DNA of 33,781 nt from a virus (lineage: Duplodnaviria > Heunggongvirae > Uroviricota > Caudoviricetes): the IMG/VR virus record IMGVR_UViG_640753025_000002, one strand, 5' to 3'. The notes beneath the pieces are model-generated. The model had not been told where the DNA came from. It did not search any database and saw only the letters and a program-made list of their open reading frames with translations. Positions 2,894-23,673 of the stretch are shown piece after piece. Made by a program: the position numbers and the translations under genes. Every line of letters starts with the position of its first letter. The first letter of the stretch is position 1.

Positions 2894-3094
2894 ATGCTGA
2901 CGAAAGAACCATCATTTGCATCGCTGCTGGTAAAACAAAGCCCGGCAATGCACTACGGTCACGGCTGGATCATGGGTGAGGATGGTAAACGCTGGCATCC
3001 GTGCCGTTCACAAGATGAATTGCTGGCAGAACTATCTACGAAAAAACGGGGGAACAAATGGCTATTGAAGGCACTGCGGCGACTGTTCCATTAA
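2894..3094 (+). CDS. Hypothetical early protein (66 aa)
   Basis: ATG at 2894 with GAGGTG RBS just after the cII stop; occupies the position of 186 fil. No motif recognised. Confidence 0.4.
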   Translation: MLTKEPSFASLLVKQSPAMHYGHGWIMGEDGKRWHPCRSQDELLAELSTKKRGNKWLLKALRRLFH

Positions 3095-7892: not shown

Positions 7893-8570
7893 ATGAAAAT
7901 TAATAATGTAGCGTTACCAATATCTCTTGCTGTAATCCTAACTGGTTGCGTGCCACATGCTTCTAACCGAAATATCACTGCTATTGAAGTGGTGAAGCCT
8001 GCTATTGGGCAAAGTGCTACCGCCTACATGGGCGATCCCATTATCACATCTGCTACTGGATTTAAAACGGACGTACTAGAACTTGGTGCGGCTAATGGTG
8101 CATTGTCTTCTATCGCTGCTGGTACATATTGCAGTGAGGGGAATGGAATTTACCGCAATTATCATAACCCTCAAGCTGTTGCGTTAAAAAATCTCTATGG
8201 GCAAATCGGTAACTATGTTGATTATGTTAGTTACGATGCTGCAAAAAATGAGATATCACCGCCAAATGGTACTTCTTATACTGCATCAGAAATTTCTATC
8301 AAACGTGTTCCTGATGGGCTGTGTCGAGTTAGTAACTCATTGGTTAAGACTATCGAATACAATGGAAATGCAGGCGGTGTAATGAAGTTCACCTATCGTG
8401 AATTTGCAAACGATATGGCTCGTGCAGCATTTACAACAGATTTTTCTGTAGATTCTAAGGGAAGTGACGTTATCGCTTACAAAGGTGCCAAGTTCAAAGT
8501 GAACAAGGCTGATAACTCGTCTATTTCTTATACAATTATTTCTGGCTTTGACAAGGCTGTCACGTTCTAG
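7893..8570 (+). CDS. Lipoprotein of unknown function (226 aa)
   Basis: Signal peptide with lipobox LTGC (MKINNVALPISLAVILTGC); AT-rich relative to phage core genes; lies in the variable region between A and cos. The ORF-track start at 7839 runs through the upstream terminator and is rejected. Confidence 0.6.
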   Translation: MKINNVALPISLAVILTGCVPHASNRNITAIEVVKPAIGQSATAYMGDPIITSATGFKTDVLELGAANGALSSIAAGTYCSEGNGIYRNYHNPQAVALKNLYGQIGNYVDYVSYDAAKNEISPPNGTSYTASEISIKRVPDGLCRVSNSLVKTIEYNGNAGGVMKFTYREFANDMARAAFTTDFSVDSKGSDVIAYKGAKFKVNKADNSSISYTIISGFDKAVTF

Positions 8571-8855: not shown

Positions 8856-10247
8856 ATGAACGAAAAACTAACTGAATTAAAAGAGAAACTAGATAATTTA
8901 CATACAACACTTAATGGTCTTGTATTCCCTGTGGAAGATTTTATAAACCTTGGGCCGTACACATTTCCTTTTTTACATAAAGATGATCTGATAGAACTAC
9001 CAAAAATGTTATCTGATAGAATTAATCAGATGCAGGAATTTGTACCATCTTCAGATGACATTGCAGTAATTGATGCGCTCATTTACACTCTGGATCATGC
9101 TCAGCAAAATATTAATCATATAAACAATGGTAACGCATCAGTTCAACAGACCGCTATACCATCTTATGTTATTTCAATGTTATATATCTCTCATAGGATT
9201 AATGACCTTTTTTCATTTGAGAGGCTGAAAGATAGAAATTTATTACCAAAGCAAATTTTACGCAGATTAGAATTATATAATTCAGGTATATCTGCAATTG
9301 CAGCTGAAACTGGTAATATAGAAGAGAAAATTAAAACTATAAATGAAGCATATGATGCAGCCGAGAATCTACCGACAACAGTAAAAATGCTTCGTGAAAC
9401 AAATGATGAAGTTAAAAATGTTTACAATAGCGCAGTTGAGCATTGCAGAAATATTAATGGCATGCTTAAAGAGACTGAAGAGAACTCCAAAATCGTAGAT
9501 GAGGCCAGACAAGAAATTTTGGCGCTGAAACAGAATGCAAGCAAGGATGCAAAAGATTATTTACAATCTCTCCGTGAAGAAGCTCAGGGTTATATTAATA
9601 AATGTGAAGAGGCATTTAGAACTACTACTTCAAAAGGTTTGGCTGGGGCATTTCAAGATAAAGCAGAAAAATTAAACCGGAGCATACGTTGGTGGGTATG
9701 TGGACTAATAGGTGCTTTGGTTGCAGGTGCTGCTGTTGGTTATACGCGTTTACATGCTCTCGAAGCATATCTGTCAAACCCTGACGCATCAGGTATAAAG
9801 TTAGCTATTCAACTTTTACTCTCCATTTTAAGTGTTGGAGCACCATTATGGTTTGCTTGGTTAGCAACGAAACAAATTGGTCAGCGATTCAGATTGGCAG
9901 AGGATTATGAATTCAAGGCCTCAGTATCCAAAGCTTATGAGGGATATAGAAGAGAAGCTGTCCAACTTGATAGCGACTTTACCCAAAGGTTATTTGGTAA
10001 TGCACTTACTCGACTGGAGGAGCCGCCATTAAGATTTGTTGAAGAAGCTACCCATTCATCGCCTATAATGGAAATGTTATCATCGGAAAATTTTAAGCAT
10101 TTCTTAGCTAATGGTGGCGATAAAATCGATTCAATTTTAGAAGGTGCAGGCCTTTCTAGAAAAGGTAAAGTCGAACAAACGCGCCATTTTAATAAGGATG
10201 TGATCCAGCCTGTAAATGAAACTTCAAACAAACCAGAAAATGATTAA
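8856..10247 (+). CDS. Membrane-associated protein of unknown function (463 aa): N-terminal coiled-coil-rich domain plus a two-helix transmembrane hairpin; candidate defence/abortive-infection effector
   Basis: Very AT-rich ORF with an AAGGA RBS; two hydrophobic helices (WWVCGLIGALVAGAAVGY and IKLAIQLLLSILSVGAPLWFAWLA) after about 265 aa of K/E/N-rich helical sequence; no NTPase or nuclease motif recognisable by eye; sits between cos and Q. Confidence 0.7.
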   Translation: MNEKLTELKEKLDNLHTTLNGLVFPVEDFINLGPYTFPFLHKDDLIELPKMLSDRINQMQEFVPSSDDIAVIDALIYTLDHAQQNINHINNGNASVQQTAIPSYVISMLYISHRINDLFSFERLKDRNLLPKQILRRLELYNSGISAIAAETGNIEEKIKTINEAYDAAENLPTTVKMLRETNDEVKNVYNSAVEHCRNINGMLKETEENSKIVDEARQEILALKQNASKDAKDYLQSLREEAQGYINKCEEAFRTTTSKGLAGAFQDKAEKLNRSIRWWVCGLIGALVAGAAVGYTRLHALEAYLSNPDASGIKLAIQLLLSILSVGAPLWFAWLATKQIGQRFRLAEDYEFKASVSKAYEGYRREAVQLDSDFTQRLFGNALTRLEEPPLRFVEEATHSSPIMEMLSSENFKHFLANGGDKIDSILEGAGLSRKGKVEQTRHFNKDVIQPVNETSNKPEND

Positions 10248-20914: not shown

Positions 20915-21512
20915 TCTGCTGCCACCGGGTTCAACACCACTGGAGCGCCGACTGGCGCAAACCTGCAGCGGGATTTCTGATCTGCAGGTGCCGCTTCGTG
21001 ACTTGTGGAATCCGGCAACCTGTCCGGTCAGCTTCCTGCCTTATCTCGCCTGGGCGTTCTCTGTGGATCGCTGGGACGAGGGCTGGACAGAAAGCGTCAA
21101 ACGCCAGGTAGTGAAGGATGCTTTTTATATTCATCAGCATAAAGGAACCACCAGTGCCGTGCGGCGGGTGGTGGAGCCGTTCGGCTTTCTGATCCGCATT
21201 ATTGAGTGGTGGCAGACCGGAGAGGCACCGGGCACGTTTCGCCTGGATATCGGCGTGCAGGACCAGGGCATCACTGAAGATACCTATCTGGAACTTGAGA
21301 GGCTGATAAGCGATGCCAAACCATGTAGCCGTCACATGATCGGCATGTCCATCAATCTGCAGACCAGCGGCCCGTATTGGTTGGGGGCAGCCAGTTATCT
21401 TGGTGAAGAAATCACGATCTTTCCGTATATCAACGAAACAATTATTTCCGGCGGCACCGCGCATGAAGGCGGGGCGGTCCATGTTATTGACACAATGAGA
21501 GTGAATCCATGA
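20907..21512 (+). CDS. I: Baseplate/tail fiber attachment protein (P2 gpI family)
   Basis: Matches P2 I (LLP.GS.PLE, LWNP.TCP...LP.LAWAFSVDRWDE, HKGT..A.RRVVEP.G, PGTFRLDIGV). Confidence 0.8.
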   Translation: MNSLLPPGSTPLERRLAQTCSGISDLQVPLRDLWNPATCPVSFLPYLAWAFSVDRWDEGWTESVKRQVVKDAFYIHQHKGTTSAVRRVVEPFGFLIRIIEWWQTGEAPGTFRLDIGVQDQGITEDTYLELERLISDAKPCSRHMIGMSINLQTSGPYWLGAASYLGEEITIFPYINETIISGGTAHEGGAVHVIDTMRVNP

Positions 21513-23260
21513 GCACAAAATTTTATACCCTGCTGACGGATATTGGCGCGGCGAAACTTGCCAGCGCCGCCGCGCTCGGTGTGCCGTTAAAAATTACCCA
21601 TATGGCGGTCGGCGATGGCGGCGGAACATTACCAACGCCGGACGCAAAGCAGACAGCACTGGTAAATGAGAAACGCCGGGCTGCGCTGAATATGCTCTAT
21701 ATCGACCCGCAGAACAGCAGCCAGATTATTGCTGAACAGGTGATCCCTGAAAACGAGGGCGGTTGGTGGATACGTGAAGTGGGCCTGTTTGATGAGTCCG
21801 GGGCATTGATTGCCGTGGGCAACTGCCCGGAAAGCTATAAGCCGCAACTGGCTGAAGGCAGCGGGCGTACCCAGACCGTGCGCATGGTGCTGATTACCAG
21901 CAGTACGGACAATATCACCCTGAAAATCGACCCTGCTGTAGTGCTGGCAACCCGCAAGTATGTGGATGACAAAATATCAGAGCACGAACAGTCACGACGT
22001 CACCCGGACGCCTCGCTGACCGCAAAGGGTTTTACTCAGTTAAGCAGTGCGACCAACAGTGAATCCGAAATACTGGCCGCAACACCGAAGGCTGTGAAGG
22101 CGGCATATGATCTTGCAGCAGGTAAAGCATCCGCCAGTCACACACACCCGTGGAATCAGATAACGGATGTGCCTGCAGCTTCACTGACGGTAAAAGGCAC
22201 CGTGCAACTCAGCAGCGCCACTAACAGCACGTCAGAAACGCAGGCTGCCACACCAAAGGCAGTGAAGGCGGCATATGACCTTGCAGCAGGTAAGGCACCT
22301 GTCAGTCACACGCACCCGTGGAGCCAGATAACAGATGTGCCTGCAGCTTCACTGACGGTAAAAGGCACCGTGCAACTCAGCAGCGCTACTAACAGCACGT
22401 CAGAAACGCAGGCTGCCACACCAAAAGCCGTGAAGGCTGTATATGACCTTGCCAATGGAAAACAACCTGCCGACGCCACACTGACCGCACTGGCAGGCCT
22501 TGCCACTGCGGCAGACAAACTTCCGTATTTTACGGGGAATGATACAGCCAGCCTGACAACCCTGACTAACGTTGGACGGAATATTCTGGATAAAGCAAGC
22601 ACACAGGCGGTTATTCAATATCTTGGTCTGAGCGATGCAAGTGGATACGTTGGACGCTGGCTGAATACCCAGGTTTTCACCTCATCAGGTACGTACACCC
22701 CGACGCCAGGAACAAAACGGATTAGGGTCACAATAACGGGCGGCGGTGGCGGAGGGGGCGGCTGCAAGGCTATATCCAATAATGAAACGTTTTTCGGTGC
22801 TGGCGGCGGGGCAGGTGGGACAGTAATCACCACGCTGATCCTGACGAAGGATAGTTATCCTGTCACTATCGGCGCAGGTGGGGCCGGCGGCGTTAGTGCG
22901 ACGAACGGCCTCAAGGGCGGTGATAGCTCGTTCGGATCGGTAATAGCCCCTGGTGGTGAAGGTGGTGGAAAATCAGGAGTCACAAACACGAACGGTGGTA
23001 ACGGCGGTGTGCCAAGTACTGGCGGTATCAACATCATTGGTGGAAATGGAGGCGACGGTCAGTCCGGAAATATCGGCGTCAGCGGTGAAGGCGGAACATC
23101 GCACTGGGGTGGCGGTGGACGCGCAGGCGCTGGCGGTGGTGTTAGTGGTAAGGCATATGGTTCAGGTGGCGGTGGCGCATACGATGCCGGTTATAGCGGA
23201 ACCAGTATGACAGGCGGGAAAGGTGCCGCTGGGATTTGTATTATCGAGGAGTTTGCATAA
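21509..23260 (+). CDS. H: Tail fiber protein (P2 gpH-like N-terminus, tandem fibre repeats, Gly-rich C-terminal domain)
   Basis: 583 aa; N-terminus MSTKFYT.LT..G..K...A; three tandem 56-aa repeats; C-terminal third dominated by GGxGG motifs. Confidence 0.85.
   Translation: MSTKFYTLLTDIGAAKLASAAALGVPLKITHMAVGDGGGTLPTPDAKQTALVNEKRRAALNMLYIDPQNSSQIIAEQVIPENEGGWWIREVGLFDESGALIAVGNCPESYKPQLAEGSGRTQTVRMVLITSSTDNITLKIDPAVVLATRKYVDDKISEHEQSRRHPDASLTAKGFTQLSSATNSESEILAATPKAVKAAYDLAAGKASASHTHPWNQITDVPAASLTVKGTVQLSSATNSTSETQAATPKAVKAAYDLAAGKAPVSHTHPWSQITDVPAASLTVKGTVQLSSATNSTSETQAATPKAVKAVYDLANGKQPADATLTALAGLATAADKLPYFTGNDTASLTTLTNVGRNILDKASTQAVIQYLGLSDASGYVGRWLNTQVFTSSGTYTPTPGTKRIRVTITGGGGGGGGCKAISNNETFFGAGGGAGGTVITTLILTKDSYPVTIGAGGAGGVSATNGLKGGDSSFGSVIAPGGEGGGKSGVTNTNGGNGGVPSTGGINIIGGNGGDGQSGNIGVSGEGGTSHWGGGGRAGAGGGVSGKAYGSGGGGAYDAGYSGTSMTGGKGAAGICIIEEFA
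22004..22460 (+). repeat. Tandem direct repeat (about 168-bp unit, about 2.7 copies) inside the tail fiber gene, encoding a phage tail fibre repeat motif
   Basis: Near-identical DNA copies starting near 22166 and 22334, plus a diverged first copy; protein repeat HTHPW(N/S)QITDVPAASLTVKGTVQLSSATNSTSETQAATPKAVKA(A/V)YDLA. Confidence 0.7.
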
Positions 23261-23673
23261 TGAATGCGTCATATGCAGTTATTGAAAATGGGATGGTTGT
23301 GAATGTCATTGTCTGGGATGGCGAGGCTGAATTCACAGTGCCGGATAATCAGCAGCTCATTAATATTTCTGATATCAGTGAGCAGCCCGGAATCGGCTGG
23401 GTTTATTCAGACGGGGGATTTACTGCACCACCCACCCAGGAACGTTCTCATGATGAACTGGTAGCTGACGCTGAACAGAAAAAACAGTCGCTGTTAGACG
23501 CAGCAATGGCCAATATCAGCGTGATTCAGTTAAAGCTGCAGGCCGGGCGCAAACTGACGCAAGAGGAAACTACCCGACTTAACGTTGTGCTGGATTATAT
23601 CGAGGCTGTGACGGCAATAGATACCAGCACCGCACCTGATATCATTTGGCCTGTTTTCCCTGCAAGCAGATAA
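23260..23673 (+). CDS. Putative tail fiber assembly/chaperone protein
   Basis: 137-aa ORF immediately after the tail fiber gene; its start overlaps the H stop (TAATGA) with a GAGGAG RBS; position of P2 gpG but sequence diverged. Confidence 0.55.
   Translation: MNASYAVIENGMVVNVIVWDGEAEFTVPDNQQLINISDISEQPGIGWVYSDGGFTAPPTQERSHDELVADAEQKKQSLLDAAMANISVIQLKLQAGRKLTQEETTRLNVVLDYIEAVTAIDTSTAPDIIWPVFPASR

Follow-up and report, generated by a model that had tools for sequence, protein, structure and literature searches.

Exchangeable modules in the tail fibre of a P2-like prophage of Escherichia coli HS: a shaft of variable repeat number and a putative receptor-binding tip linked to its chaperone

How a P2-like phage comes by a tail fibre that resembles the P2 fibre at one end only, and what such a fibre might recognise, are questions raised by the gene at the gpH position of IMG/VR virus record IMGVR_UViG_640753025_000002, a stretch of 33,781 nt of Caudoviricetes DNA (hereafter the window). 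The gene encodes a fibre of 583 amino acids and is followed by a gene for a tail fibre assembly chaperone (Table 1). A first-pass annotation, made from the sequence without database searches, had described the fibre as a chimera with a P2-like N-terminus, a tandem-repeat shaft and a glycine-rich C-terminus, and had proposed a swapped receptor-binding module with a distinct host range. The stretch covering both genes (21509-23673) is 100% identical to the chromosome of the commensal Escherichia coli HS in four independent records and to strain C51, and the fibre sequence is thus not an assembly artefact. Five parts can be recognised, namely a Phage_tail_fib N-domain, three tandem units of 56 residues, a linker shared with P2 H, a tip of 212 residues and the coupled chaperone. 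We consider it very likely that the HS fibre is the receptor-recognising tail fibre of a P2-like temperate phage, built from exchangeable modules that include a shaft of changing copy number and a chaperone specific to the tip.

The HS fibre shares with P2 gpH its gene position after gpI, the PF12571 N-domain, Phage_fiber_2 repeats and the linker. The two proteins are colinear with 57% identity from residue 1 to about residue 376, and the linker (LTALAGL...YLGL) is the final segment common to both, forming the junction to the tip ('YLGL', residues 371-374). BLASTP of the fibre against P2 H gave no alignment beyond residue ~382, in keeping with the proposed chimera, which is P2 H-like only up to '...YLGL' and has nothing alignable after it. 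In P2 H, by contrast, there are two repeats, spaced differently and lacking an S-H-T-H-P-W linker, and the C-terminus of 288 residues has a Gp34_trimer match, no Gly_rich_2 match and no relation to the glycine-rich tip. On sequence comparison the HS fibre appears to be a true mosaic. That fibres are mosaic across P2, Mu, P1 and lambdoid phages is textbook knowledge, and phage tail fibre mosaicism was reportedly described by Haggard-Ljungquist et al. in 1992. The N-terminal DNA allele of the HS fibre occurs in 1025 of 5426 complete E. coli genomes, and at 97-98.7% identity in Klebsiella and Escherichia P2-like phages, where the DNA match stops at 21972 (nucleotide 464 of the gene). A different arrangement is seen in the fibres of CX12 (L007, 301-2280), D7 (L008, 301-2406) and HUM3355 (L009, 301-2376), which carry an extra non-glycine domain of 130-190 residues between shaft/linker and tip, the same glycine-rich tip beginning there at '...DLGLSD(A/E)SGYVGR'.

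Glycine makes up 37% of residues 410-583 (174 residues), with GGxGG and poly-G motifs, vs 6% of residues 1-371, so the glycine-rich C-terminal region of about 170 residues described earlier is present, and it is indeed unlike P2 H. A domain search of this region, as had been suggested, identified PF21722 (Gly_rich_2) at residues 392-580 with 54.2 bits (gathering score 24.3), over profile positions 2-224 of 226. A phmmer search of the whole fibre against PDB sequences left the tip unmatched and found only the Mu S fibre, via the shaft repeat. Tip relatives numbered 753 matches among 90% clusters and 7708 50%-identity representatives at E<=1e-3, of which 1185 had E<=1e-10; a second search with the tip of Jedunavirus ZCEC13 as query added only ~17 new sequences, the diversity that the structure model required coming from the 50%-identity representatives. 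An AlphaFold2 monomer model of residues 372-583, based on an alignment of 124 relatives, reached a mean predicted local distance difference test score (pLDDT) of 95.7 and a predicted template modelling (TM) score of 0.90, with 199 of the 212 residues at pLDDT>=90. The modelled fold is a beta-sandwich continuing into stacked glycine-rich strands, as in the Pam3 gp24-type fold. Foldseek against the PDB ranked the Pam3 fibre first (7ypx_A, E 2.3e-8, TM 0.69), followed by Bxb1 tail-tip proteins and the glycine-rich domains of ALK/LTK, and a profile of the 124 tip sequences finds Pam3 gp24 across the whole domain (E 6.9e-21). As phmmer found no such match, the link between the tip and Pam3 is visible only by profile or fold; judged by these two approaches, the tip is a homologue of the solved distal module of Pam3 gp24. 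This module consists of a TNF-like sandwich whose strands run into a glycine-rich lattice with a variable distal end, and is held by gp25 in assembly (PMC9608196). In BFVD, 270 viral proteins have the tip fold at E<=1e-3, the best being the fibre of phage Goslar (TM 0.98). The suggestion of a module swapped relative to P2 H is borne out, a Gly_rich_2 domain of Pam3 gp24 fold standing in its place. Column entropy among close E. coli alleles places variation in four segments of the tip (Table 1), outside of which it is nearly invariant, including the Gly motifs and the last 70 residues (the C-terminal third); these hypervariable segments would be candidate receptor contacts. Another PDB match of the tip profile (8gl8_D, 'RemZ', E 3.8e-5) covers the N-terminal ~200 residues of a bacterial protein of 1114 residues, and the glycine-rich domain may thus also occur in non-phage surface proteins.

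The chaperone ATG overlaps the fibre stop codon (TAATG, 23258-23262) with GAGGAG 8 nt upstream, an arrangement from which the chaperone is predicted to be translationally coupled to the fibre gene. Linkage between tip and chaperone was assessed in 80 IMG/VR loci found with the chaperone. Of 55 loci matching the chaperone N-terminus, 50 carry a whole glycine-rich tip immediately before the gene and five are contig-cut or have a partial tip; of the 25 loci that match chaperone residues 61-134 only, none has the tip, showing that the chaperone N-domain travels with the tip. The first-pass annotation called the chaperone unlike P2 G. This applies to the N-terminal ~60 residues, which are unrelated in the two proteins, but not to the family, both being Caudo_TAP (PF02413) members with 31% identity over the C-terminal ~90 residues only (E 7e-4; P2 G has 175 residues). 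The C-terminal part (the last ~170 nt; query 864-1032) is common to HK106, SfIV, KP12, P2-like phages and others. North et al. reportedly proposed in 2019 a model of Tfa in which the N-domain is not conserved and is matched to the tip, while the C-domain is conserved. The same two-domain logic has been described for Pam3 gp25 (PMC9608196), and as far as sequence can tell it fits the HS chaperone, a Caudo_TAP member of 137 residues. In a single-sequence model of the chaperone the N-part contains beta strands, and residues 64-118 form a helical hairpin (pLDDT ~80). Three IMG/VR loci (L045, L046, L048) retain only the last 37-90 residues of the tip before an intact chaperone (start at 3001), which may be what tip replacement left behind, or may belong to invertible fibre segments. 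RefSeq places the HS chaperone start 33 nt further on (23293 vs 23260), giving 126 residues; the start at 23260 agrees with the 137-residue annotation in other genomes and in Goslar. The gene is marked as pseudogene or partial in several genomes, possibly for similar annotation reasons.

The tip and chaperone are found well beyond P2-like prophages. Of 5426 complete E. coli genomes, 261 have the 1052-nt stretch encoding them at a coverage of at least 80%, and 76 of the places found are on plasmids; the stretch occurs both on chromosomes and on P1-like plasmids of about 90 kb. Just 30 genomes hold at least 80% of the full HS fibre-chaperone query in a single place. In PLSDB the stretch occurs in 46 plasmids of about 80-120 kb, nearly all of them non-mobilisable, and one such plasmid with darA, holins and a recombinase is a P1-like phage-plasmid. 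Another context is a Mu-type tail module adjoining stfP, and in IMG/VR the tip is placed behind at least five different fibre N-termini. This distribution suggests that the tip and the chaperone N-domain move as a cassette which is widely exchanged. Tip and chaperone are not the common form among P2-like phages with known receptors in the phage collection searched: no P2-like phage record there has this tip or this chaperone, and only the jumbo phage Goslar covers both. By tblastn the tip found Goslar only, with the glycine-rich part masked, and a distant DNA search worked better. Hundreds of E. coli fibres of 308 residues with an N-terminus beginning 'MHRIDTKTAQKDKFG...' and the glycine-rich tip (P0006-P0116; e.g. 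L019, L028, L031) are named 'carbohydrate kinase' at NCBI, a name that seems to be a phage-fibre misannotation passed on between records.

The closest cultured-phage relative is Goslar (Goslar_00090), with 70% amino acid identity in the tip, 65% in the chaperone over its full length, 67% at the DNA level and the same gene order. The Goslar fibre differs in having 1324 residues and another N-terminus and shaft, and belongs to an unrelated lytic phage of the Chimalliviridae. Pam3 gp24 (PDB 7YPX / 7YFW) is a minimal fibre of 280 residues with an alpha-helical shaft, whereas the HS tip sits on a long P2-type shaft. The tip of ZCEC13 gp53 is 65% identical and has a Gly_rich_2 match; this protein and TFP_Y of the Klebsiella myovirus SCNJ1-Y are single-domain-shaft fibres of 285 residues, unlike the HS fibre, and TFP_Y is described as a gp24-like fibre (PMC12671077). 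TFP_Y interacts with lipopolysaccharide (LPS) and blocks LPS-triggered DNA ejection, and its host-range mutations map to the glycine-rich domain (PMC12671077). Like behaviour is cited there for another Klebsiella phage related to Pam3. In a genome-wide screen Goslar, which depends on the LPS core, is listed under LPS, GluII, with hits in galU, hldE and waaF, and P2vir under LPS, GluIII in the same table (supplement, bioRxiv 10.64898/2026.04.02.716166). The glycine-rich (TG) domain of ALK/LTK, part of a eukaryotic cytokine-receptor ectodomain, has 20-24% identity over ~120 residues, with no functional relation implied.

The shaft array was reported in the first-pass annotation as 22004-22460 with 2.7 copies, and this holds in three analyses. 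PF03406 (Phage_fiber_2) matches three stretches in the shaft (E 5.2e-55), Tandem Repeats Finder reports a period of 168 at 22075-22452 with 2.2 copies, 91% matches and a score of 630, and a lag-168 comparison gives 231 of 278 identical positions and a longest exact run of 53 nt. The description of copies 2 and 3 as nearly identical stands for their first 105 nt (100/105 identical) and fails for the final 63 nt, where unit 3 diverges into the linker (22/63); units 1 and 2 agree at 85/96 positions across the last 96 nt. Each full unit ends in S-H-T-H-P-W (22133-22150, residues 209-214; 22301-22318, residues 265-270). The H-x-H motifs of trimeric phage fibres and spikes such as T4 gp37 and gp12 hold octahedral iron by six histidines, and the number of putative H-x-H metal sites in the HS-type fibre would track repeat number, from 1 to 5 in the alleles seen.

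Repeat number varies among related prophages, for which a comparison had been proposed. Orthologues in complete genomes have two units (D3, 527 residues), three (HS and strain 127, 583 residues) or four (K99B, 639 residues), and further forms of the same architecture with five (695 residues) and six units (751 residues) are present in the protein database, where single fibre proteins were found on 260, 149, 72 and 68 contigs, the first two counts belonging to single four- and five-copy proteins. Fibres of 527, 583, 639 and 695 residues also occur on IMG/VR prophage contigs. Fibres with the same architecture are present on hundreds of E. coli contigs, and the combination of parts is not rare in nature. 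The five- and six-unit genes lie in syntenic P2-like prophages, with 95-96% identity to the window over their 4-kb flanks and 99-100% in N-terminus and linker. We typed each unit by its 5' 105 nt (a, b or c in HS) and its 3' 63 nt (x, y or z). HS has the order a-x, b-y, c-z. In the five-unit allele the order is a-x, b-y, c-x, b-y, c-z, and its units match the HS units at 98-100% identity. This five-unit order is exactly the product expected of one unequal crossover between two three-unit alleles offset by two units, and supports the view that chimeric units mark in-register unequal crossover. The idea that recombination changes the copy number thus has comparative support, with two to six copies in orthologous prophages and chimeric units of the expected kind.

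We posit that the modules work together as follows. The N-terminal domain would dock the fibre trimer to a P2-type baseplate, and the 56-residue units would form a shaft that in-register unequal recombination between near-identical DNA units could lengthen or shorten, with the conserved linker serving as a recombination junction. The tip has the Pam3 gp24-type fold, its variable loops most likely making the contact with the host receptor, for which an LPS-core sugar is the probable candidate. The Tfa-family chaperone, with a tip-specific N-domain and a generic C-domain, most likely holds three tips while they fold and form the trimer, a role shown for Mu Tfa and Pam3 gp25. Several points weigh against this picture. 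The tip model is a monomer, with the trimer and the chaperone interface outside it, and the chaperone model is poor in the N-domain (pLDDT 33-39, single sequence), making the fold there unreliable. The ZCEC13 fibre gene (L002, 2727-3584) has no adjacent Caudo_TAP gene and is followed by convergent spanin/endolysin genes, so a chaperone may not be universally required; either it is encoded elsewhere in ZCEC13 or the tip folds without one. The putative receptor role of the tip in P2-like phages is drawn from relatives, and the LPS dependence of Goslar is a whole-phage phenotype, its receptor-binding protein being listed as unknown.

One objection to a receptor-binding tip would be that the glycine-rich C-terminus is nothing but disordered or low-complexity sequence, or that it acts as an intramolecular chaperone and is cleaved off, as its glycine content and the masking of most of the glycine-rich part by the BLAST low-complexity filter could suggest. 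We give this hardly any credence, since the model is compact and highly confident, the tip has a solved distal fibre domain among its homologues, variable non-Gly segments alternate with conserved Gly columns, and a dedicated chaperone is separately encoded downstream. A more serious possibility, if somewhat short of an even bet, is that the differences in repeat number arise as neutral products of recombination or from short-read assembly errors, without consequence for infection. Units of 168 nt with exact runs up to 53 nt are hard for short-read assembly, and many variant proteins derive from draft assemblies. The fully read variants, however, are all in frame and differ by whole 56-residue steps, the two-, three- and four-copy forms are present in complete genomes, and single length variants are found again and again, on dozens to hundreds of contigs. 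A functional alternative is that shaft repeat number, changing by single unequal-crossover steps over the range seen, is a fast 'reach' adjuster through O-antigen or capsule of varied thickness for a fixed LPS-core-binding tip. We regard this as rather unlikely; if true, fibre length besides tip sequence would be under host-range selection in P2-like prophages.

As to what a receptor-binding tip might recognise, a sugar of the LPS core is our best guess by analogy with the relatives described above, at slightly better than even chances. A competing explanation is that the tip binds an outer-membrane protein, in the manner of the T2/S16-like gp38 adhesins (OmpC, OmpF, Tsx and others). These adhesins use glycine-rich scaffolds with hypervariable loops for porin recognition, Pam3 gp24 resembles S16 gp38 (PMC9608196), and in the HS tip, too, the hypervariable segments lie between conserved Gly motifs. 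However, T2/S16 gp38 is a separate small protein that caps gp37 and forms a three-layer polyglycine II sandwich, features which the HS tip does not have, and we consider an outer-membrane protein an improbable receptor. Returning to the LPS core, P2 itself uses this structure, so a tip swap does not have to bring a radically new class of receptor. By analogy, the swap would probably mean a different core epitope or core type, and a host range different from that of P2, as proposed in the first-pass annotation, is plausible.

The HS fibre is a clean natural case of modularity at three levels: attachment domain, variable-length shaft and tip-plus-chaperone cassette. Its exact junctions, at the end of the N-domain near 21972, at 'YLGL' (22630) and at chaperone residue ~60, are the splice points one would use for retargeting P2-based phages or tailocins. 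Work on the Pam3/ALK-like glycine-rich tip has so far concerned minimal cyanophage and Klebsiella fibres; in E. coli prophages and P1-like plasmids the tip is a common putative receptor-binding module. Tip fold and Tfa logic have already been solved in other phages, and the HS fibre is a well-formed example of known modularity that changes no concept; repeat-length polymorphism is the one aspect possibly worth experiment. Literature searches on Gly_rich_2/PF21722 and on P2-like fibres with glycine-rich tips found no study of the combination or of the repeat-number series, and the RBPseg atlas paper does not discuss the tip fold.

The genomic setting agrees with a P2-type fibre locus. The fibre gene lies after a Tail_P2_I gene (E 7.3e-55) and before the chaperone and then the sheath gene, in a locus syntenic with the P2 late operon. 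The best PHROG match of the fibre is a tail fibre family (E 1.9e-251) and RefSeq already labels the protein as a phage tail protein; an NCBIfam scan gave nothing useful. In HS the surrounding 42 kb are a complete P2/186-like prophage beside ybjL, with CI/CII, replication, portal, terminase, capsid and lysis genes and those for baseplate V-W-J-I, fibre, assembly protein, sheath, tube, tape measure, U, D and ogr. A tailocin or defective prophage was considered and rejected, with portal, terminase subunit, capsid-scaffold, major-capsid, head-completion, lysis and replication genes all annotated. The fibre is apparently carried by an intact P2-like temperate phage.

Table 1. Positions of the fibre and chaperone features in the window
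Feature	Coordinates	Strand	Extent	Basis
Tail fibre gene (gpH position)	21509-23260	+	583 aa	Open reading frame; stop TAA 23258-23260
N-terminal baseplate-attachment domain	21509-21958	+	aa 1-150	PF12571 Phage_tail_fib, E 4.1e-65; 57% identity to P2 H
Tandem array of 168-nt (56-aa) shaft units	22010-22455	+	~2.65 copies at DNA level	Lag-168 comparison
Conserved linker 'QPADATLTALAGLATAADKLPYFTGND...YLGL'	22460-22630	+	aa 318-374	Alignment with P2 H runs through, stops at YLGL
Putative receptor-binding tip (TNF-like and glycine-rich domain)	22622-23257	+	aa 372-583, 212 aa	
Four hypervariable tip segments	22823-23047	+	aa 439-449, 462-481, 484-492, 503-513	Column entropy, 140 close E. coli alleles
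Tail fibre assembly chaperone	23260-23673	+	137 aa	PF02413 Caudo_TAP, 77.5 bits vs cut-off 22.1
Chaperone N-terminal tip-specific domain	23260-23439	+	aa 1-60	Co-inheritance with tip in IMG/VR loci
Chaperone C-terminal conserved part	23485-23653	+		Tfa genes of many unrelated phages share it at ~80% DNA identity

A weak promoter-like site on the + strand and a terminator-like site on the opposite strand both fall inside the chaperone gene, and amount to no more than chance. Elsewhere in the window, two open reading frames at 7893-8567 (+, 225 residues) and 8856-10247 (+, 463 residues) lie between replication/DinI-like genes and the portal gene. Neither matched a significant Pfam or PADLOC family, the only hits being sub-threshold (a 16-bit JetC-like and a 17-bit DUF4126 match). 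They sit at the variable cargo position of P2-like phages and could be uncharacterised accessory or defence genes.

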